From: Escherichia coli | Lineage (GTDB): Bacteria > Pseudomonadota > Gammaproteobacteria > Enterobacterales > Enterobacteriaceae | Length of the DNA: 64,000 bases | Direction: 5' to 3' (one strand) | NCBI RefSeq assembly: GCF_011045215.1 | Contig: NZ_CP049201.1 | Part shown: one piece after another, positions 1 to 11,277 of the stretch | Numbering within the stretch: position 1 is the stretch's first letter | How the letters are laid out: each line of letters starts with the position of its first letter | The notes under the pieces: generated by a model | The model's database searches: none | Seen by the model: only the letters and a program-made list of their open reading frames with translations | What the model was told of the DNA's origin: nothing | Made by a program: the position numbers and the translations under genes

Positions 1-1
1 T

Positions 2-478
2 TACAATTTACTCCTGTTGATTGATGTCGGTGAATCTGGTCAACACAAACAATCTTTTGCCACCATAGCCACACAAGTTTTTGAAAAAGGCTATGATTTC
101 AGGCACGGTATTGCACTGGCTATTCCTGTGCTCATTACTGAATTATTAACCCGGTTAATGTGGACATGTAAACAATGGTTATATCATAAAAAGCCCTTGA
201 CTGAGTGTGTACCTGTAGAAAATGATCCGGAGTTAAGAAGAATGTTACTGATTGCTCATGGAACGCTCTGTATGATTGATGCTGGTGATGCAGCATTTAG
301 ATCCGGTGGTAATTTGATGACGTTTCTGCTGAGAACTAATATGGTCGGCTGGGTTCGGTTTGGTATGCTTGCGTTAAAAGAAGTTCATGGGTTATACAAC
401 ACAGGTCATATTGATGTTGATTCGGTTGATAAATATCTGGATACTGAATTAGAAAGATTATCATCTCATCTATACTAA
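2..478 (+). CDS. Hypothetical protein, C-terminal fragment; reading frame is open to the left window edge, so the 5' end is missing
   Basis: ORF track 17..478 begins at a TTG, but the same frame has no stop back to position 2. No recognisable motif. Lies inside the selC island. Confidence 0.4.
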   Translation, partial: YNLLLLIDVGESGQHKQSFATIATQVFEKGYDFRHGIALAIPVLITELLTRLMWTCKQWLYHKKPLTECVPVENDPELRRMLLIAHGTLCMIDAGDAAFRSGGNLMTFLLRTNMVGWVRFGMLALKEVHGLYNTGHIDVDSVDKYLDTELERLSSHLY

Positions 479-703
479 TCCCTCTGACAGGCCATTCTGC
501 TATAAAGACATGGGATGAATGATAATGATTGTCGGCGCTTTTTTCACGAAGGAAAGGGTAGTGACAGCCAGGTTTACAATGTACCGCTGCATATGTGGCG
601 GTTGACTATATCGGCTTCACGGTTTTCAGGATAAAGCATTAATCAGTAGTCCTGTATTAAGTATATCTGCCTCAGGCGAACATACTGTATTTTATAAATT
701 TTT

Positions 704-2308
704 ATGAAAAACAACCTTCTTTTTATATTCCTGTCGCGGATTAATAATGATAAAAGTATTGTGTTATCTGTGATTGTTTTTACGCTTGCTAATATGATTG
801 TATCATCAGGTGCACATCTGATTTATCGGGTATTATTCTTTACCCTGACTCTCCTTATTATCAAGAAGATAAAGTTATTTACGCTGCGTTTGATTCTTGC
901 TTTTCCGTTCACGTTACTGACTGCTGCAGATATCAGTATCAGCCTGTATTCATGGTGTACATTTGGCACAACATTTAATGATGGTTTTGCAATCAGTATC
1001 CTTCAGACAGATCCTGATGAAGTAATAAGAATGTTCAGGATGTATGTTGTTTATGTTATCGCATTTATTATCCTCTTTTTATTGTTCTTCTGTTCAGCAA
1101 TAAATAAAACGTCCTCATTGCCATCGGAAAAGGTCACGGTAATTACATTTTTATTGTTAATTACAGTAACGTTATATTCTTCCTTTCAGTTTGCGTTGAA
1201 GAAACAGTATCAAATAAATGAAGTTGATCCTTACATAGTCGCTTCCCGGTTTGCCACATATACCCCTTTCTTTAATCTGAACTATTTTGCACTGGCCGCA
1301 AAGGAGCATCAGAGATTAATGACGATTGCTGATACCATACCTCACTACGAGCTGATGATTACAGACAATAATATTGATGAATTTGTACTGATCATCGGTG
1401 AATCAGCAAGGACTGATAACATGTCCATTTACGGGTATTCGCGCCCAACCACACCAGAACTTCAGAAACAGAAATCACGGCTGAAACTGTTCACTCAGGC
1501 AATCAGTGGCGCACCTTACACTGCGCTGGCTGTTCCTCTGGCGTTGTCTGCCGATAGTGTACTGCATCATGATATCCGTAATTACCCTGATAACATTATC
1601 AACATGGCGAATCAGGCAGGGTTCGATACCTGGTGGCTCAGTGCGCAGTCCGCTTTCCGGCAGAACGGAACGGCTGTGGCCAGTATCGCCATACGGGCCA
1701 GAAACAGAATTTATGTCAGAGGCTATGATGAGTTACTGCTCCCACATCTGGCTGAAGCACTGAACAGTAATCCGGGAAGAAGGAAACTGATTGTTCTGCA
1801 TCTGACGGGCAGCCATGAACCAGTCTGCAGTAACTGGCCCAGAGATAAAGCCGTGTTTAAACCACTGGATACAGAAGAAGTCTGCTACGATAATTCCATT
1901 CATTATACCGACAGTTTGTTGGGGCGGGTTTTCGCCATGCTGGAAACGCGTCAGGCATCAGTCATGTATTTTTCAGATCACGGTCTGGAGTATGACCCGA
2001 CAAAAGAACATGCCTATCTTCATGGCGGAATAAAACCCAGCCAGCAGGCTTATCATGTTCCGATGTTTATCTGGTACAGCCCGGCTCTGGGAGAGCATGT
2101 CGATCGCCAGACGGTGAACAGCGTTTTTTCTACTGCGTATAATGATTATCTGATTAATGTATGGATGGGCGTAACCAGACCAGCTCAACCGAAAACGCCG
2201 GAGGAGGTGATCACCCGCTGGCAGGGGAAATCAAATGTTATTGATGCAAACCATAACGTGTTTGACTACAACGTATTACGAAAGAACTTTAATGAACCCC
2301 TGGAATAA
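704..2308 (+). CDS. Phosphoethanolamine transferase family protein (N-terminal multi-pass membrane region plus sulfatase-like catalytic domain; EptA/EptB/OpgE-like)
   Basis: 534 aa. Hydrophobic N-terminal third (e.g. LIIKKIKLFTLRLILAFPFTLL, VVYVIAFIILFLLFF). Periplasmic domain has the LIIGESARTDNMSIYGY motif typical of PEtN transferases, a candidate Thr nucleophile region (ISGAPYTALAVP) and a C-terminal HxxG-type region. Visibly AT-rich compared with the flanking core genes. Confidence 0.7.
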   Translation: MKNNLLFIFLSRINNDKSIVLSVIVFTLANMIVSSGAHLIYRVLFFTLTLLIIKKIKLFTLRLILAFPFTLLTAADISISLYSWCTFGTTFNDGFAISILQTDPDEVIRMFRMYVVYVIAFIILFLLFFCSAINKTSSLPSEKVTVITFLLLITVTLYSSFQFALKKQYQINEVDPYIVASRFATYTPFFNLNYFALAAKEHQRLMTIADTIPHYELMITDNNIDEFVLIIGESARTDNMSIYGYSRPTTPELQKQKSRLKLFTQAISGAPYTALAVPLALSADSVLHHDIRNYPDNIINMANQAGFDTWWLSAQSAFRQNGTAVASIAIRARNRIYVRGYDELLLPHLAEALNSNPGRRKLIVLHLTGSHEPVCSNWPRDKAVFKPLDTEEVCYDNSIHYTDSLLGRVFAMLETRQASVMYFSDHGLEYDPTKEHAYLHGGIKPSQQAYHVPMFIWYSPALGEHVDRQTVNSVFSTAYNDYLINVWMGVTRPAQPKTPEEVITRWQGKSNVIDANHNVFDYNVLRKNFNEPLE

Positions 2309-2364
2309 TTCGTTAAAGTAATTTACGACTCTATTCTTTTTTAAAGGAAACTTTCAGAAAATAA

Positions 2365-2385
2365 CCCCAGGGCGATAACCTGGGG
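2365..2385. terminator. Hairpin between the convergent PEtN-transferase and TPR-like genes; possible bidirectional terminator
   Basis: ccccagggcgataacctgggg: a 6-bp GC stem (cccagg/cctggg) flanked by A/T-rich sequence. Confidence 0.35.
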
Positions 2386-2454
2386 AAGGGGGTTTAGTGT
2401 GTTATTACTGGTGGATAAATTATTACTTGTTTGAAAAATACACTAATGCAATAT

Positions 2455-3498
2455 CTACTGATGCTGGATGCTTGAGTGTTTCATTCCTGCCGCTGAAAAC
2501 GGCAATATCCAGGGCCAGACATATTCACCGTTAATATTTCTGCATTTCTGTACAATTTCCTCAGAAAGTGTCTCATCAATTCTTTCCCACAACAACTTCT
2601 GCTGTCTTAAAATGCTTTCGCATATTTCGAAATCATCTTCCTGCATCAGCATTTCGGCGCATTTAATGATTTCTGCCCGTTCATGCAGCACAGAGGAATG
2701 GTTATAGAGCCAGTTTACAAACAGCAATGCTTCCGGATATTGTCCCCATAATGGTGAGTATGTTGCATAATAATCTTCGGCAGTATCCGGCCCGGCAGAA
2801 TAGTTATGCCATACAGCAAGAGGAAATGGATGCAGATTTCCGCACAGTATTTCTGCGATGTAAGTATTTGCCGTAAAGCCACGACGAAATGCAGTTGCAG
2901 CTTTTTCCAGTTCCCCATTAAGAAAATGCAGAAGGCCGAGTTCATACCAGTAAGGTGAAAATTCATCAGCGTACTCATTCAGTACACGGAAAGCTCGCTC
3001 ATGATCACCTGTTCGTAACAGTTCTGAACCCAACAACCAGCGGGTACCCTGATTATCTTCAGGATTGTATGCCAGTATTTTCTCAATGAGCATGATGGCA
3101 TCCTGATGACGTTGTAAATGTACATTTGCCAGGATTGCTGCATAAAGCGCGCGCAGATAAGGCCGGTTTTCGGGATGCATCCAGATGATTTCACCACTGA
3201 AACTTTCCGGGATGAGACGATTACCTGCCGCCAGTCCTTTAAGAGCGGCGTTCAGTGCCTTACGCGGGGCATTCTGCTCCAGAAATGCATATGCCAGATG
3301 AGCGTGTATATCAATAAAGTCAGGCTCCTGTTGAGCAAGGCGTCTGAGTTTGTTGATGTAACTCGCCTCACTGATTTCACCAGTATCGTATGTATCAAGC
3401 AGTTTTTCAAACTCCCCCGGTAATGGGCAAAACCAGGTATCCGGAAATACGAAACGCCCTTGGTTATCGTTTACTTTAAAGCGTAATTTGTCGTTCAT
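2455..3498 (-). CDS. Hypothetical protein with TPR-like helical repeats, function unknown
   Basis: 347-aa ORF with a clean start and an AT-rich upstream region. Ala/Leu-rich helical repeat character (e.g. ALKGLAAGNRL, YAAILANVHLQRHQDAIMLIEKILAYNPEDNQG, ELGLLHFLNGELEKAATAFRRG). No catalytic motif recognised. Confidence 0.55.
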   Translation of the reverse strand: MNDKLRFKVNDNQGRFVFPDTWFCPLPGEFEKLLDTYDTGEISEASYINKLRRLAQQEPDFIDIHAHLAYAFLEQNAPRKALNAALKGLAAGNRLIPESFSGEIIWMHPENRPYLRALYAAILANVHLQRHQDAIMLIEKILAYNPEDNQGTRWLLGSELLRTGDHERAFRVLNEYADEFSPYWYELGLLHFLNGELEKAATAFRRGFTANTYIAEILCGNLHPFPLAVWHNYSAGPDTAEDYYATYSPLWGQYPEALLFVNWLYNHSSVLHERAEIIKCAEMLMQEDDFEICESILRQQKLLWERIDETLSEEIVQKCRNINGEYVWPWILPFSAAGMKHSSIQHQ

Positions 3499-3850
3499 TT
3501 TCTGAGCCTGTAAAACGGATTGGACACAATCTGAAAAGCATAAAAGTCGTGATGTTGTGTATCAAGTCTTGTTTTTGTCCGGGATGAATGTTGTTTACAA
3601 TATCATCGACAGTGTTTTTATATGAGAATGAAAATTTATCTTTATCTGCATTCCAATGTATTGTGAATTGTCAGCTGAAACAGCATATTAATCGATTTTT
3701 TGATAATGGTGCTGAAATAACGACAGGATGATGATTGAAACTACTGGTATCAAAATTGTTAGCGGTCCATAATGGTGTGATGTTTTGAGATTGTTTATAG
3801 ATGCAATATTAAATATTTTGTCAAAAAACAAAAAATACCTAAAAATAAAG

Positions 3851-3888
3851 CATAAAAACAAAATTCCTCCGGACCAGGAGGCCGGAGG
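3851..3888 (-). terminator. Rho-independent terminator downstream of the integrase gene
   Basis: Stem cctccgg...ccggagg (3866-3888) followed on the minus strand by a T-rich run. Confidence 0.4.
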
Positions 3889-3928
3889 AGAATTTGTGGA
3901 TTGAGAGAAAATATCAGGACAAGTGCTC

Positions 3929-5119
3929 TTAACCCTGACTCTCTTGCTTAGAAAGCGAATCAATATAATCTGCGTACCACTGCATCATTTCACGGCGACC
4001 ATCGAGATACTGGGCATGATTATAGGTACCCCTGATGGCGTTTTTATCCACATGAGCTAACTGCATTTCAATCCAGGCGGAATTAAAGCCCTGTTCGTGC
4101 AGAATGGTACTCATGGTGTGTCTGAAACCGTGCCCTGTGAGTCTTCCCTTATATCCCAGTAATTCAATGACTTGGTTAATGCTTTCCTTACTAATTGGCT
4201 TGCGAGGATCGTTCCTACCGATAAAGACCAGAGGATGATGTTTTGTGATGGGTTCAAGTTGCTTAAATAGGGCAATGACCTGCTCAGAGAGCGGCACAAT
4301 ATGAGGTCGCTTCATCTTCATTACTTTTGCCGGAATCTCCCATAATTTTGTCTCAAAATCGATATCCTCCCAGCGTGCGAAACGTAATTCTTGTGTTCGT
4401 ACACCAGTTAACATAATGATCTGAGTAGCTGTCTTAGTGATGATACTTCCGGTATAACCCGCCAGATCGTTGAGGAAGTGGGGAAGTTCATTAGCAGTAA
4501 GAAAGGGAAAATGTACTTTTTTCGGTGTAGCTAAAGCACAGGCAAGATCGGGAGCAGGGTTGTAGTCTGCCCGACCAGTAACAATTGCATAGCGGAACAC
4601 TTCACCACAGCGCTGGCGGACTTTGCGCATTTTCTCCAGAGCTCCACGTTTTTCCATTTTACGCAGTGCTTCCAGTAACTCCATTGGTTTGATTTCGGCG
4701 ATAGGGCGTTTGCCAATGTAGGGAAAAATGTCTTTTTCAAAGGTATCAATGATTTCATCACGATAGCGTAATGACCACCGATCGGCTTTTGACTGATGCC
4801 ATTCGCGAGCAATGGCCTCGAACGTATTTTTCAAACTCATTTGTTGCGCGATTTTTTCTTCTTTTTTTGCCACCCCTGGATCGCCTCCAGCAGCGAGGAT
4901 TTTTCTGGCTTCGCTGCGTTTTTCACGAGCGTCGGCTAGCGTTACATCGGGGTATACGCCAATAGAAAGCATCTTTTCTTTACCAGCAAAGCGGTACTTC
5001 ATACGCCAGTATTTAGAACCATTAGTGTTAATCAGTAGATACATACCGCCGCCATCAGCAAGTTTATAGGGCTTTTCTTTTGGTTTTGCGGTTTTCACTT
5101 TAATATCGGTTAATGCCAT
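3929..5119 (-). CDS. int: P4-family tyrosine integrase (site-specific recombinase)
   Basis: 396 aa. C-terminal catalytic region with the conserved R...HxxR...Y residues (LTGHGFRHTMSTIL, IRGTYNHAQY). Same orientation as, and directly downstream of, the tRNA 3' end, the canonical layout for tRNA-targeting islands. Confidence 0.9.
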   Translation of the reverse strand: MALTDIKVKTAKPKEKPYKLADGGGMYLLINTNGSKYWRMKYRFAGKEKMLSIGVYPDVTLADAREKRSEARKILAAGGDPGVAKKEEKIAQQMSLKNTFEAIAREWHQSKADRWSLRYRDEIIDTFEKDIFPYIGKRPIAEIKPMELLEALRKMEKRGALEKMRKVRQRCGEVFRYAIVTGRADYNPAPDLACALATPKKVHFPFLTANELPHFLNDLAGYTGSIITKTATQIIMLTGVRTQELRFARWEDIDFETKLWEIPAKVMKMKRPHIVPLSEQVIALFKQLEPITKHHPLVFIGRNDPRKPISKESINQVIELLGYKGRLTGHGFRHTMSTILHEQGFNSAWIEMQLAHVDKNAIRGTYNHAQYLDGRREMMQWYADYIDSLSKQESQG

Positions 5120-5417
5120 GACATCCTCCGGCTTTTAATGAATTCATGTTCCTGAGGGGGACTTCTGCCAGTAATTAACCTGATACCCCCAATGCACCCC
5201 TTGTATAACAAAGATGTTGTTGAAAGCCGTTGTTATATATCATATTTTACCAATTATGGGGGTGCTGATATTTCAATAGGAAATAATACCCCCTAAAGTA
5301 CCCCCAAAAGCAACTTGATACGGGGTGAAGTCGGTTGACTTCTGGATACAAAGGAATCCTGATATACAAGGGATTAGAAGGGGTGGTTGACATCGGGGGA
5401 GTTCAGAAGATGTTAAT

Positions 5418-5512
5418 TGGCGGAAGATCACAGGAGTCGAACCTGCCCGGGACCGCTGGCGGCCCCAACTGGATTTGAAGTCCAGCCGCCTCACCGGAGA
5501 CGACGATCTTCC
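5418..5512 (-). tRNA. selC: tRNA-Sec (selenocysteine tRNA)
   Basis: 95-nt reverse-complement match to the E. coli selC sequence (GGAAGATCGTCGTCTCCGGTGAGGCGGCTGGACTTCAAATCCAGTTGGGGCCGCCAGCGGTCCCGGGCAGGTTCGACTCCTGTGATCTTCCGCCA) as I remember it; the 3' CCA is at 5418-5420. Confidence 0.95.
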
Positions 5513-5804
5513 GCGCCTCGATTGCTACATGGAGGCGGGGCGCATTATAGCTACTTCCTTGAGTTTCTACATCCCCCAGATCAGTTTTTTCCGCCTAATA
5601 CACGCAGCGTATTATCACGAAAGCATTATAGTTCATATAAAACCCATATTTTACAATGATATATGAGCGGAATTAACGCTACCACGATCACATAAAACAA
5701 GAATCATAAATTAATAACCAGATATCGGAATATTCGCTCTCACAGGGATGGTTTACAAAATGCGTTATCGGTCTCAGCACCCCTATAGCATCAAGGAAAA
5801 GCAG

Positions 5805-7187
5805 ATGAAGAGTGAAGTGTTGTCCGTTAAAGAGAAAATTGGTTATGGCATGGGAGACGCCGCCAGCCACATTATTTTCGATAACGTAATGTTATATATG
5901 ATGTTCTTTTATACCGATATTTTTGGCATTCCTGCCGGATTTGTCGGAACCATGTTTTTGGTCGCTCGTGCACTGGATGCGATTTCCGATCCTTGCATGG
6001 GGTTGTTGGCCGATCGAACGCGCTCTCGCTGGGGTAAATTTCGTCCGTGGGTACTGTTTGGCGCACTGCCATTCGGGATCGTCTGTGTACTGGCCTATAG
6101 CACGCCAGATCTCAGTATGAACGGCAAAATGATCTATGCAGCAATTACTTACACCCTACTTACCTTACTTTATACCGTCGTCAATATCCCTTACTGCGCA
6201 TTGGGTGGTGTAATCACCAATGAACCGACTCAGCGTATCTCGCTGCAATCCTGGCGTTTTGTGCTGGCGACCGCGGGAGGCATGCTCTCTACTGTTCTGA
6301 TGATGCCACTGGTTAATTTAATTGGTGGTGATAATAAACCACTCGGTTTCCAGGGCGGTATCGCGGTCCTTTCCGTGGTGGCATTCATGATGCTGGCATT
6401 CTGTTTTTTCACCACTAAAGAACGCGTTGAAGCACCACCTACAACGACGTCTATGCGGGAAGATTTACGTGATATCTGGCAAAACGACCAGTGGCGGATT
6501 GTCGGTTTACTAACCATTTTCAATATCCTGGCGGTGTGCGTACGCGGTGGAGCGATGATGTATTACGTCACATGGATTTTGGGTACGCCGGAAGTGTTTG
6601 TCGCTTTTCTCACCACTTATTGCGTGGGTAACCTGATTGGTTCCGCACTGGCAAAACCGCTGACCGACTGGAAATGTAAAGTCACTATCTTCTGGTGGAC
6701 GAACGCCCTGCTGGCAGTGATTAGCCTCGCGATGTTCTTTGTTCCCATGCAGGCCAGCATCACTATGTTTGTCTTCATCTTCGTGATTGGTGTGTTGCAT
6801 CAACTGGTGACACCTATCCAGTGGGTAATGATGTCCGATACCGTCGACTACGGCGAGTGGTGCAATGGTAAACGCCTGACCGGGATCAGTTTTGCTGGCA
6901 CGCTGTTTGTGCTCAAACTGGGGTTGGCCTTCGGCGGCGCTCTTATCGGCTGGATGCTGGCTTATGGCGGATATGATGCGGCAGAAAAAGCGCAGAACAG
7001 CGCCACGATTAGCATCATTATTGCGCTATTCACGATTGTTCCGGCGATCTGTTATTTGCTGAGCGCGATTATCGCTAAACGCTACTACTCACTCACGACG
7101 CACAATCTGAAAACCGTTATGGAACAGCTGGCTCAGGGTAAACGCCGTTGCCAGCAACAATTCACCTCTCAAGAAGTGCAGAACTAA
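5805..7187 (+). CDS. yicJ: GPH-family sugar:cation symporter (putative xyloside transporter)
   Basis: 460 aa from MKSEVLSVKEKIGYGMGD; 12-TM MFS/GPH profile; directly upstream of yicI. Confidence 0.85.
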   Translation: MKSEVLSVKEKIGYGMGDAASHIIFDNVMLYMMFFYTDIFGIPAGFVGTMFLVARALDAISDPCMGLLADRTRSRWGKFRPWVLFGALPFGIVCVLAYSTPDLSMNGKMIYAAITYTLLTLLYTVVNIPYCALGGVITNEPTQRISLQSWRFVLATAGGMLSTVLMMPLVNLIGGDNKPLGFQGGIAVLSVVAFMMLAFCFFTTKERVEAPPTTTSMREDLRDIWQNDQWRIVGLLTIFNILAVCVRGGAMMYYVTWILGTPEVFVAFLTTYCVGNLIGSALAKPLTDWKCKVTIFWWTNALLAVISLAMFFVPMQASITMFVFIFVIGVLHQLVTPIQWVMMSDTVDYGEWCNGKRLTGISFAGTLFVLKLGLAFGGALIGWMLAYGGYDAAEKAQNSATISIIIALFTIVPAICYLLSAIIAKRYYSLTTHNLKTVMEQLAQGKRRCQQQFTSQEVQN

Positions 7188-7196
7188 GGAACGGCA

Positions 7197-9515
7197 ATGA
7201 AAATTAGCGATGGAAACTGGTTGATTCAACCTGGCCTCAATTTGATTCACCCGCTTCAGGTGTTCGAGGTTGAACAGCAGGGTAATGAAATGGTGGTCTA
7301 TGCTGCCCCCCGTGATGTGCGTGAACGTACCTGGCAGCTTGACACGCCTTTATTTACGCTGCGCTTTTTCTCCCCACAGGAAGGTATTGTCGGTGTGCGG
7401 ATTGAGCATTTTCAGGGGGCGCTGAATAACGGTCCTCATTATCCGCTCAATATTTTGCAGGACGTGAAGGTCACAATCGAAAACACAGAACGTTATGCTG
7501 AGTTTAAAAGTGGCAACTTAAGCGCGCGTGTCAGCAAAGGTGAGTTCTGGTCACTGGATTTTCTGCGCAACGGCGAACGTATTACCGGTAGTCAGGTGAA
7601 AAATAATGGCTACGTGCAGGACACGAATAATCAACGAAATTATATGTTTGAGCGGCTTGATCTTGGCGTTGGCGAAACAGTTTATGGTCTGGGAGAGCGC
7701 TTTACTGCCCTGGTGCGCAATGGTCAGACGGTAGAAACCTGGAACCGGGACGGCGGCACAAGTACTGAACAGGCGTATAAAAATATCCCGTTCTACATGA
7801 CTAACCGTGGTTATGGGGTACTGGTCAATCATCCCCAATGCGTCTCTTTTGAAGTGGGATCGGAGAAAGTCTCCAAAGTGCAGTTCAGCGTTGAGAGTGA
7901 ATATCTCGAATACTTTGTTATCGACGGCCCGACGCCGAAAGCGGTACTTGATCGTTATACCCGCTTTACTGGTCGTCCGGCGCTGCCGCCCGCGTGGTCC
8001 TTCGGTCTGTGGCTAACCACTTCATTTACCACCAACTACGACGAAGCGACGGTAAATAGCTTTATTGATGGTATGGCGGAACGCAATCTGCCGCTGCATG
8101 TTTTCCACTTTGACTGTTTCTGGATGAAAGCCTTCCAGTGGTGCGATTTTGAGTGGGACCCGCTGACTTTCCCGGACCCGGAAGGGATGATCCGCCGCCT
8201 GAAAGCGAAAGGGCTGAAAATCTGCGTCTGGATTAACCCCTATATTGGGCAAAAATCCCCCGTCTTTAAAGAGTTACAAGAGAAAGGTTATTTACTCAAA
8301 CGCCCGGACGGTTCGCTGTGGCAGTGGGATAAATGGCAGCCAGGTCTGGCGATTTATGACTTTACCAATCCGGATGCCTGCAAATGGTACGCCGACAAAC
8401 TGAAAGGTCTGGTCGCGATGGGCGTTGATTGCTTTAAGACCGACTTTGGCGAACGTATCCCAACCGATGTTCAGTGGTTTGACGGTTCCGATCCGCAGAA
8501 AATGCATAACCATTATGCGTACATCTACAACGAACTGGTGTGGAACGTGCTCAAGGACACCGTTGGTGAGGAAGAAGCTGTCTTGTTTGCCCGCTCGGCC
8601 TCCGTCGGTGCGCAGAAATTCCCGGTACACTGGGGTGGCGACTGTTACGCTAACTACGAATCAATGGCGGAAAGCCTGCGCGGTGGTTTGTCTATTGGCC
8701 TTTCAGGTTTTGGCTTCTGGAGCCACGATATCGGCGGCTTTGAGAATACCGCGCCGGCGCACGTTTACAAACGCTGGTGCGCGTTTGGTTTGCTCTCCAG
8801 CCATAGTCGTTTACATGGCAGCAAATCTTATCGTGTGCCGTGGGCCTACGATGATGAGTCCTGTGATGTGGTGCGCTTCTTCACGCAACTGAAATGCCGC
8901 ATGATGCCGTATCTGTATCGTGAAGCTGCGCGTGCGAACGCGCGGGGTACGCCGATGATGCGGGCCATGATGATGGAGTTCCCGGACGATCCGGCTTGTG
9001 ATTACCTTGACCGTCAATACATGCTAGGCGACAACGTGATGGTTGCTCCGGTGTTCACTGAGGAGGGCGAGGTGCAGTTCTACTTGCCGGAAGGTCGCTG
9101 GACACACCTGTGGCACAACGATGAGCTCGACGGTAGTCGCTGGCATAAACAGCAGCACGGCTTCCTGAGTCTGCCCGTTTATGTGCGTGATAACACCCTA
9201 CTGGCGCTGGGCAACAACGATCAACGTCCCGATTACGCGTGGCACGAAGGTACGGCATTCCAGCTCTTTAAACTGCAAGACGGGCATGAAGCCGTCTGTG
9301 AAGTGCCCGCTGCTGACGGTTCGGTGATCTTTACTTTAAAAGCAGCACGTACTGGCAACACGATTACTGTGACTGGTGCGGGCGAGGCGAAGAACTGGAC
9401 GCTGTGCTTGCGCAATGTTGTGAAAGTAAATGGTCTGCAAGGCGGTTCGCAGGCTGAAAGTGAGCAGGGACTGGTGGTGACTCCTCAAGGGAATGCGCTG
9501 ACAATTACGGTGTAA
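7197..9515 (+). CDS. yicI: Alpha-xylosidase, glycoside hydrolase family 31
   Basis: 772 aa with GH31 signature regions ([18 protein letters not shown]); length and synteny match YicI. Confidence 0.9.
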
Positions 9516-9567
9516 TCTATTGATGGAATGCCGGGTACGTCTGAGTCGTACCCGGCGAGATTGATGT

Positions 9568-11277
9568 TTACTGCACCAGCTCTGCCGACGTAACTTCACC
9601 GCTGGAAACGATGCCAGCATTCATGGTTTGAGTCACTTGCTGCTTTGCGGCATTCACGGCATGCAATTGCCCGCTAACCGTAGGTTTCAGCGGGACATTG
9701 GCCTGAATATCGCCACTGGCGGTAAGCTGAATATTGCCGTCGCCAGTCAACGGTAATTCAGGCCATCCCCAATGTTGCAAAATATTCACCGGCACACCGC
9801 GTCCATTCAGGCTGATATGGGTCTGACGTTGTGGCGTTTGTGAAACACTGGCGGTGGCTTCCAGAATGCCTTTTTCAGTAAATGCACTCAGTTCGCTGAT
9901 ATTCACCGTGCTGCTGTTGGCGGTTAGCGCCAGCGATGGACGACGGACATCAACACGATTAAACGTCGCGGCGGCGGCATTCAGATTCGCCGAACCACTC
10001 CAGACGCCCCATTTATGATCGGTAACCAGCGTCAGGTTGGCACCGTAACCATCGAGCGCGGTGAGCTGCCACGGGAAGTCAGGGTCGATATCAATGATCA
10101 GATTGCGGCTGGCGCTAAATCTCTTCAGTTGCAGGCTGTTTAACCAACCCGGTGTCGTTTCCATCCACAACTGTTGCCAGTTTTTCGGCAAGGTATATTC
10201 CAGCCCGGCAATTGCCGCATCATCAAGGAGTAACGTTTTCCCGTCACGCAGCCAGTTCCCTGACGTTCTGACCATACCCCCTTCCCAGCGGCTGGTGAAC
10301 TGGCGCAGCGCTACGCCCTGCGGGGAAAATTCCGCGTTTATAATCGGGTCAAATAAATGCAGCGAACCATAAATGAACTCGCTGGCGTTCATCGACAGTT
10401 TGCCTTCTTGTGTCTGCCAGTCATCTTTACTGAAGGTCATGTTGCGCAAGCTGAGATCGAGGTCGGTCACCGCCCAGTCCGGACCTTGCAGACGAGCATC
10501 GATCACTTCCAGGCGACCAATCTGCAACGACGGGACAGAGCGTAATGGCGCAAAGAAGTCGGCTAGCGATTTTTCGCTTTGTAGACGGATATCCGCCATG
10601 CGCAGATTTTCCACTTGCCAGCTGCCGTCGGCGTTACGCTGCGCGTTTCCGGTTAATGTCCCGCGCGCGATGTCGGCACCCAGGTTAGTCAGCGTAACGC
10701 GATCGTTATCAATACTGCCTTCAATCAGTACATTGGTGGCAGGAATATCATTGAGCGAAAGCGATCCGGCACTAAACTGAATCTGCGCCTTCGTACCCAG
10801 CACTTTACCGGCTTCTGGTGACCACGGAACCACGCCGCCATTTACCCGCTGCGCGCTCAGTTTCCATTCGCTATTCGGGCTATTAAACGCCATATCACGC
10901 AGTTGCAGACGATCGGCTTTGAACGGTAGCGGCGCGGTCTGGTCGGTGAGATTCAGCGTTCCGTTTTCCAGCAGGATGGTATCGACATGGCGTGGTTCGG
11001 TCAGTTGCCGACTGCTTAGCGCAATGTCGACACTTTTTGCCACCAGGGTCGCGGGCTGACCATCACGACCAAATGTGACGTTCTCCAGCACGATATGAGA
11101 TGGCGCGGAAAAACGGTGATCCATCGCCCCGAAGGCCAGATGATAGTCGCTATTCTCGGAAACCCATGCGCTGATATGTTCTGCTCCCCAGCGGGTTTGC
11201 AGAAGAAAATAGAGGCCAGCGATCACCACTAACAGAGCGATGAGAATGTAGAGAAGCAGCTTCCCAATAAATTTCAT
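9568..11277 (-). CDS. yicH: AsmA-family membrane protein
   Basis: 569 aa from MKFIGKLLLYILIALLVVIAG (N-terminal anchor); conserved position between yicI and xanP. Confidence 0.85.
   Translation of the reverse strand: MKFIGKLLLYILIALLVVIAGLYFLLQTRWGAEHISAWVSENSDYHLAFGAMDHRFSAPSHIVLENVTFGRDGQPATLVAKSVDIALSSRQLTEPRHVDTILLENGTLNLTDQTAPLPFKADRLQLRDMAFNSPNSEWKLSAQRVNGGVVPWSPEAGKVLGTKAQIQFSAGSLSLNDIPATNVLIEGSIDNDRVTLTNLGADIARGTLTGNAQRNADGSWQVENLRMADIRLQSEKSLADFFAPLRSVPSLQIGRLEVIDARLQGPDWAVTDLDLSLRNMTFSKDDWQTQEGKLSMNASEFIYGSLHLFDPIINAEFSPQGVALRQFTSRWEGGMVRTSGNWLRDGKTLLLDDAAIAGLEYTLPKNWQQLWMETTPGWLNSLQLKRFSASRNLIIDIDPDFPWQLTALDGYGANLTLVTDHKWGVWSGSANLNAAAATFNRVDVRRPSLALTANSSTVNISELSAFTEKGILEATASVSQTPQRQTHISLNGRGVPVNILQHWGWPELPLTGDGNIQLTASGDIQANVPLKPTVSGQLHAVNAAKQQVTQTMNAGIVSSGEVTSAELVQ

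Follow-up and report, generated by a model that had tools for sequence, protein, structure and literature searches.

The window analyzed here is a stretch of 64,000 nucleotides from Escherichia coli (contig NZ_CP049201.1 of RefSeq assembly GCF_011045215.1). Near its start lies an open reading frame (ORF) placed between the gene of a P4-type tyrosine integrase and the gene of a phosphoethanolamine (PEtN) transferase, and it is convergent with the latter (Table 1). RefSeq designates its product only as “tetratricopeptide repeat protein” or “hypothetical protein”, and the first-pass annotation of this DNA, made from the letters alone, had called it uncharacterised. This label has to be given up, because the product has a confident match to the ShiA/SisA/SisB family: the gene is already known and named, its family has published infection phenotypes, and its sequence marks it, almost beyond doubt, as a further and distinct allele of shiA/sisA/sisB. 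It is, in this sense, an ordinary island gene. We take ShiA to be the protein of the SHI-2 island of Shigella flexneri, and SisA and SisB to be the “shiA-like inflammation suppressors” of uropathogenic E. coli (UPEC).

The assignment is supported by homology over the full length, by the size of 1,044 bp or 347 aa and by the position after a P4-type integrase at selC. For the LAA island of Shiga-toxigenic E. coli it has been stated that the product named “tetratricopeptide repeat protein” by PGAP, whose gene adjoins that of a PEtN transferase, “corresponds to SisA” (PMC13340028), and since the same study gives the sisA gene as “1,044 bp”, the window ORF matches the published length exactly. Moreover, a selC island has been described whose first 2.9 kb, “including shiA”, are common to Shigella SHI-2 and are followed by a PEtN transferase (PMC6174562). 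Both published sisA primers for quantitative PCR map within the 1,044-bp ORF that follows the pheV integrase of strain CFT073, and the forward primer matches the window ORF exactly at 3257..3276.

At the protein level, the window product shares 85% identity with CFT073 SisA (347/347 residues, no gaps), 87% with the S. flexneri cluster P0003 and 88% with the E. coli B copy ECB_03517, which is of the ShiA type and located at selC. P0003 is in turn 83.0% identical to CFT073 SisA and 96% identical to the selC copy of E. coli B. As these values reproduce the published identities of ShiA, namely 83.3% with SisA (PMC13340028) and 97% with ECB_03517, we regard P0003 as ShiA-type. The closest protein cluster to the window product has 93% identity, and no ORF match in the complete genomes of E. 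coli exceeds 95.7% at the DNA level. sisB was sought at pheU of CFT073 and is not there, and the window contains no site for the sisB reverse primer at up to three mismatches.

ShiA of SHI-2 and ECB_03517 resemble the window protein in several respects: they also comprise 347 aa, align with it over the full length at 87–88% identity without gaps, and are encoded directly after the integrase next to selC. What differs is the downstream cargo, which consists of the PEtN transferase and a Bunzi system in the window and of LacI, MFS and GH31 genes in E. coli B. The order of the window, with integrase, family gene and convergent PEtN transferase, recurs for SisA in the LAA island and in GIselC17584/1. 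In contrast, CFT073 sisA is situated at pheV, the integrase there is just 41% identical to that of the window, and the neighbouring PEtN gene is truncated and of a different type.

Table 1. Features near the start of the window, with the evidence for each
Feature	Position	Strand	Evidence or content
Conserved 5' leader and promoter	3499..3597	minus	promoter scan; alignment of 9 upstream regions
shiA/sisA/sisB-family gene	2455..3498	minus	1,044 bp, 347 aa, ATG-to-stop ORF
Only part of the gene matched by generic tetratricopeptide repeat (TPR) models	2857..3162	minus	encodes residues ~113–214
Intrinsic terminator of the shiA/sisA-family gene	2355..2385	minus	7-bp G+C-rich stem, 7-nt loop, T-run
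P4-type tyrosine integrase	3929..5119	minus	Pfam Arm-DNA-bind_3, Phage_int_M, Phage_integrase
tRNA-Sec (selC), island attachment site	5418..5512	minus	ARAGORN; Rfam tRNA-Sec 83.8 bits
PEtN transferase (sulfatase-fold, EptA/CptA-like)	704..2308	plus	Pfam Sulfatase E=4e-50

The protein and its transcription unit

The window protein matches 83 clusters in a large protein database. Its homologues, with 93–97% coverage and identity down to 34%, occur in Gamma- and Betaproteobacteria, and an exhaustive profile search collected 244 representatives (50% clustering) at E<=1e-30. Among six E. coli alleles of the gene, the pairwise ratio of nonsynonymous to synonymous substitution rates (dN/dS) is 0.13–0.25, and the gene is under purifying selection. 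A spurious ORF, which the first-pass annotation had allowed for should conservation be lacking, is therefore rejected, and the clean 347-aa ORF that it had reported between the two neighbours is real. Conserved motifs run along the whole family protein, beyond the TPR core, and include NRPYLRA, NPxDNQGxR, YPPYxYELGL, AATALRRGFxxNxYIAE (or, more generally, AATAxRRGFxxNxYIAE), WLFNHSxVLxERA, IDDxLSxEIV and WPW.

The protein is acidic (31 K+R, 48 D+E) and rich in Leu (12.1%) and Ala (9.5%). Neither a transmembrane segment nor a signal peptide was detected in it, as the N-terminus is hydrophilic and the maximum 19-residue Kyte-Doolittle mean is 0.88. Four Pfam TPR models match above their cut-offs, namely ANAPC3 (31.8 bits, cut-off 27.2), TPR_19 (30, cut-off 25), TPR_2 (27.3, cut-off 27) and TPR_14 (26.3, cut-off 23.5), and TPR models are matched by 37 of 38 family members. 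An AlphaFold2 model built with the family alignment (pLDDT 93.2, pTM 0.88) consists of a short N-terminal beta-hairpin, 17 helices arranged as an all-alpha solenoid of the TPR type with about 8–9 helical pairs, and a short C-terminal segment that carries the WPW motif. Sequence models above curated cut-offs and the helix-turn-helix solenoid fold agree in placing the protein in the TPR superfamily, and the structural neighbours of the model are exclusively TPR proteins. No enzyme, DNA-binding, secretion or membrane domain was found for it in Pfam, NCBIfam, PADLOC or PHROGs, and a sequence search of the PDB, with the single protein or the family profile, returned only generic TPR proteins. According to these models, the window protein is a soluble, acidic TPR solenoid without catalytic domain or export features. 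The earlier description of it as TPR-like, Ala/Leu-rich, and devoid of signal peptide, transmembrane segment and recognisable catalytic motif is thus borne out, and the structure prediction that it recommended gave a confident model.

Several better known TPR systems were compared with the family. For Rqc1/TCF25, a subunit of eukaryotic ribosome-associated quality control (Pfam Tcf25, PF04910), the sequence identity is 15%, and on the window protein the Tcf25 model gives no match at E<=10 (gathering score 24.2 bits). Six of the 38 family members match Tcf25 weakly (best E 1.3e-4); the distant relative P0190 alone passes (51.7 bits), and its Tcf25-like and ShiA-like halves are separate regions. 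Searching PDB sequences with the family profile, we did not find Rqc1/TCF25 among the 60 best of the 139 matches at E<=10. TPR solenoids converge easily, and we treat this likeness as a lead and not as membership. MamA, SctY and the class II chaperones of the type III secretion system (T3SS), and the PlcR/Rap receptors all score below their family cut-offs and cover just the central 80–180 residues; no T3SS, magnetosome or helix-turn-helix/peptide-gene context is present near the gene in the loci examined. Two candidates were rejected: a T3SS TPR chaperone of the SctY or class II kind, as SctY reaches 31.5 bits against a cut-off of 70 and T3SS genes are missing nearby, and an anti-phage defence or anti-defence protein, for which PADLOC gave DrmC only (E=0.044), PHROGs nothing significant and a viral fold library nothing specific.

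The gene is preceded by a promoter-like sequence, TTGATA-17-TATGCT, at 3565..3537 according to the promoter scan. The AT-rich upstream region that the annotation had pointed out is evident as well, with a GC content of 0.35 at 3401-4000 against 0.44–0.48 within the gene. When nine upstream regions were aligned, just the last ~100 nt before the ATG proved to be conserved, and this holds across three integrase lineages and plasmids. At the other end, the hairpin CCCCAGG-7 nt-CCTGGGG at 2365..2385 has an RNA fold energy of -13.1 kcal/mol. Since the T-run follows it on the minus strand, the hairpin that had been noticed between the two convergent genes is the terminator of the shiA/sisA-family gene and not an element shared with its neighbour. 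Other alleles keep this stem by a compensatory change of A/T to T/A (CCCCTGG/CCAGGGG versus CCCCAGG/CCTGGGG), and plasmid copies possess a different hairpin in the terminator position. The conserved leader and promoter, together with the preserved terminator, indicate that the gene is an autonomous unit of promoter, ORF and terminator that moves between contexts. In addition, a terminator-like CCTCC-6 nt-GGAGG with a T-run is located at 3866..3881 on the minus strand, just 3' of the integrase stop codon. The arrangement is consistent with integrase and shiA-family gene being separate transcription units.

Genomic context within and beyond Escherichia

Beyond selC we found the core genes yicJ and yicI, of which yicI is 99.5% identical to that of E. 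coli, and these flanks show that the window begins within a selC island of the E. coli chromosome; tRNA-Sec is the only Rfam match over positions 1..6000. Homologues of the shiA/sisA-family gene with at least 80% DNA identity are present in 1,965 of 5,426 complete E. coli genomes (36%), with up to five copies each. We compared 15 chromosomal contexts, that is, the window and 14 loci, the majority of which were drawn at even spacing from the ranked hits. The order of tRNA gene (selC, pheV or pheU), integrase and shiA/sisA-family gene was observed in 14 of the 15, and in the single exception IS1 takes the place of the integrase. The adjacent integrases belong to three lineages, with 41%, 63% and 97–100% identity to that of the window, while the shiA/sisA-family gene stays 85–94% identical. 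An island remnant in ST131 has been reported to retain “only intP4 and shiA”. It is with integrases and mobile elements that the gene is stably linked, and not with the PEtN transferase. Overall, we are fairly confident that the locus is best explained as a self-contained shiA/sisA/sisB unit that occupies the first cargo slot behind the P4-type integrase in a selC island.

The product of the PEtN gene stays below the equivalog cut-offs of the NCBIfam PEtN-transferase models. In 10 of the 15 contexts, the gene found downstream is a convergent one for a PEtN transferase, of two unrelated types with ~92% and ~26–31% identity to that of the window; it is pseudogenised or truncated in three of these ten and absent in the other five contexts, and the shiA/sisA-family gene is intact throughout. 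A remnant of the PEtN 3' end is kept downstream of every Escherichia copy, including the “PEtN-less” and plasmid ones, which means that the pairing is ancestral in Escherichia and that the PEtN gene was lost repeatedly. The window-type PEtN gene is found in just 511 genomes, against the 1,965 with the shiA/sisA-family gene. Copies of the latter on IncF and other plasmids have a GGDEF gene behind them, and no PEtN transferase is present near the distant homologues in the loci examined. Taken together, the losses, the counts and these other contexts argue against a dedicated functional partnership, and the shiA/sisA-family gene is probably independent of the PEtN transferase. We also noticed that many RefSeq genomes carry a “hypothetical protein” of ~230 bp annotated just 3' of shiA/sisA (for example L020 8187-8417, L021 8179-8409, L024 3206-3424). 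This ORF starts in the PEtN 3' remnant on the opposite strand and is probably an annotation artefact.

Outside Escherichia, homologues with 46–53% identity are located in mobile elements. In Vitreoscilla-like contigs the gene is placed between dtrJ and the SLT-OmpA-traL-traE-traK-traB block of a conjugative element of the MOBH/MPF-F type; in betaproteobacterial integrative and conjugative elements (ICEs) it and an FlhDC-like pair, which may be the activator of the element, are divergent, and traI and a coupling-protein gene are next to it; and in P. putida it is found among integrases, KfrA and type IV pilus genes. In Rubrivivax rivuli it follows an unrelated integrase of the DUF3701 type by 60 nt and precedes an AAA_22 ATPase and a type I restriction-modification system. 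The same 382-aa AAA_22 ATPase, 85% identical, occurs 3' of the gene in R. rivuli (L028 6389-8645) and in betaproteobacterial ICE contigs (L015 9001-11327), and the pairing is absent outside that betaproteobacterial branch. PADLOC gave a weak mad8 match (E=1e-4) as its sole signal for this pair, and the two genes may form a TPR and ATPase module in that branch. In a betaproteobacterial metagenome-assembled genome (MAG; L031), a DUF4172-Fic gene at 8628-9980 overlaps the start of the ShiA-like ORF (9977-10900) by 4 nt, which suggests co-transcription in that lineage.

The most distant members, with 34–40% identity, reside in ordinary chromosomal neighbourhoods, and no tblastn match was obtained in 50,697 phage records. 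The neighbours encountered include PEtN transferase, GGDEF, AAA_22 ATPase, Fic, a Y4mA_C-domain protein and a 164-aa ORF, and no partner gene conserved across the branches was found among them; the species-wide genome scan gave 8 loci only, one of them the Collinsella-binned contig described below, so that neighbour statistics across species are anecdotal. Twenty longer relatives were checked for fusions, and most of them have extra TPRs. P0200 (575 aa) has an N-terminal plasmid pRiA4b ORF-3-like domain (PF07929, E=9e-16) before the ShiA-like region, a DUF7713 domain is found at the C-terminus of both P0220 and P0226, one relative with a partial ABC_tran match is probably a gene-call artefact, and weak Tcf25 signals were also seen; a clear functional clue came from none of these.

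Proposed function and competing explanations

The family is used as a virulence marker, under the names shiA, sisA or sisB, in Shigella, UPEC, enteroaggregative E. coli (EAEC) and those E. coli producing Shiga toxin (STEC) that are negative for the enterocyte effacement locus (LEE), and roughly one in three complete E. coli genomes carries it. According to the literature, host inflammation in animal models is stronger with shiA mutants and upon loss of sisA/sisB, and sisA/sisB have been linked to the suppression of the host response in urinary tract infection (UTI). sisA was transcribed in the urine of 6 out of 8 UTI patients, and EAEC cases did not carry shiA more often than controls did. Descriptions of the product are inconsistent: in the review literature ShiA is labelled a “putative quinone reductase”, a name inherited from the 1999 SHI-2 paper, and is also called a predicted cytoplasmic protein, and PMC6174562 lists it as a “transporter”.

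We suggest that the ShiA/SisA protein would stay in the cytoplasm of the bacterium and serve there as a scaffold that binds proteins or peptides. Such a scaffold would alter some bacterial process, and the anti-inflammatory phenotype would follow from this indirectly, not from direct action on host cells. The binding groove of TPR proteins, the missing export signal and the distribution of the family in non-pathogens and environmental bacteria make a cytoplasmic adaptor the simplest reading, and we put it forward tentatively, at somewhat short of an even chance. Several points weigh against it. No binding partner, localisation or biochemical activity of the family is reported in the literature consulted; the published phenotypes, taken at face value, agree with a host-directed role; the groove residues that we consider conserved, namely N111/R112, D148-R153, R162, E186, R205, N211 and E216, are predicted from the alignment; and a 2026 STEC study removed sisA along with hes and part of atoS, which says little on sisA alone.

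The main rival of the cytoplasmic scaffold is a factor that serves the island, ICE or plasmid itself, for example through excision or integration by the integrase, regulation of the element or defence against incoming DNA, so that the effect on infection would be secondary. Such a role would fit the positional data, namely the place directly after an integrase linked to a tRNA gene (selC, pheV or pheU), seen in 14 of 15 E. coli contexts, the three integrase lineages linked to a gene that hardly changes, the copies beside integrases in Rubrivivax and P. putida, the ICE positions divergent from the FlhDC-like pair or between dtrJ and traL, the ST131 remnant and the single pRiA4b ORF-3-like fusion. 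However, the adjacency may reflect the positional hitch-hiking of a gene in the first cargo slot, the protein resembles no known recombination directionality factor, anti-restriction or defence protein in PADLOC or PHROGs, and the most distant homologues are found in ordinary chromosomal contexts; on balance we consider this explanation rather unlikely. A broader proposal is that the ShiA/SisA family is an ancient accessory of mobile elements, a cytoplasmic TPR adaptor with an overall shape like that of Rqc1/TCF25 and a bacterial target, whose infection phenotypes would be indirect. It would accommodate the first slot after integrases, the variable cargo positions in ICEs, the occurrence in Gamma- and Betaproteobacteria and the pairing with the AAA_22 ATPase or Fic in some lineages, and its targets may include integrase or element regulation, incoming-DNA defence or the translation apparatus; as a whole we regard it as doubtful.

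Less likely than the mobile-element role are the two explanations that start from the infection phenotypes or from the neighbouring gene. A secreted or translocated effector that directly suppresses inflammation in host cells would agree with the more inflammatory shiA mutants, with the part ascribed to sisA/sisB in suppressing the host response in UTI and with sisA expression in the patients' urines, and some pathogens do employ TPR and Sel1 repeat proteins as effectors. This is improbable for a protein without signal peptide or transmembrane segment whose relative ShiA is predicted to be cytoplasmic, whose family extends to the laboratory strain E. coli B and to ICEs and islands of environmental Beta- and Gammaproteobacteria, and which shows no disease association in EAEC and is carried by 36% of complete E. 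coli genomes. The annotation had offered a regulator or adaptor for the neighbouring cargo, or else an independent island function. The latter part stands, as the gene is an independent unit with its own promoter and terminator. The former, for instance a cytoplasmic TPR partner of envelope PEtN modification that alters innate immune recognition, fared poorly. The ten contexts with a convergent PEtN gene of two unrelated types and the 3' remnant at every Escherichia copy speak for it, PEtN transferases have been found at all tRNA sites analysed (PMC6174562), and inflammation could plausibly be altered by way of envelope modification. Yet the PEtN gene is so often broken or absent beside an intact partner gene, and present in so few of the genomes, that we think such an adaptor very improbable; the two genes are moreover convergent and parted by the terminator of the shiA/sisA-family gene, GGDEF follows the plasmid copies, and the distant homologues are without a PEtN transferase.

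As for a quinone reductase or NADPH oxidoreductase, or a transporter, literature statements are what favours these functions. Even at E<=1–10, Pfam and NCBIfam give no match to an oxidoreductase, Rossmann, flavodoxin or transporter domain, the model is an all-alpha TPR solenoid with exclusively TPR neighbours, and a transmembrane segment is lacking, so that we give these functions next to no credence: the oxidoreductase label is contradicted, and “transporter” is without support in sequence or structure.

For virulence scoring it is relevant that the marker appears to encode a soluble TPR scaffold without an enzyme domain, in an autonomous unit tied to integrases and not to the PEtN transferase. 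With a close relative in E. coli B and distant ones on environmental ICEs, the focus moves from host-cell assays to a bacterial binding partner.

Further observations on the island

At the very start of the window, positions 17..478 on the plus strand hold a 153-aa ORF that is cut by the window start. It matches the C-terminus of BnzB, of the Bunzi anti-phage system in PADLOC (positions 352-502 of 504, E=3e-63), and the selC island thus holds a defence system just beyond the PEtN transferase. No junction of Bunzi with the PEtN gene was found in complete E. coli genomes, in which bases 1-690 are unmatched next to the PEtN gene. At pheU of CFT073 (L026 12926-16388), the slot after the integrase is occupied by a truncated AAA-domain gene, an IS3 element and an ATP-dependent nuclease gene, and it seems that the position next to the integrase takes up variable cargo, which can include defence-like genes.

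Finally, a 3.5-kb contig binned as a Collinsella sp. MAG (L027, JAIJJM010000323.1) carries an integrase 95–98% identical and a shiA-family gene 87% identical to those of the window, and it almost certainly stems from E. coli/Shigella and was assigned to an actinobacterial MAG by mis-binning.

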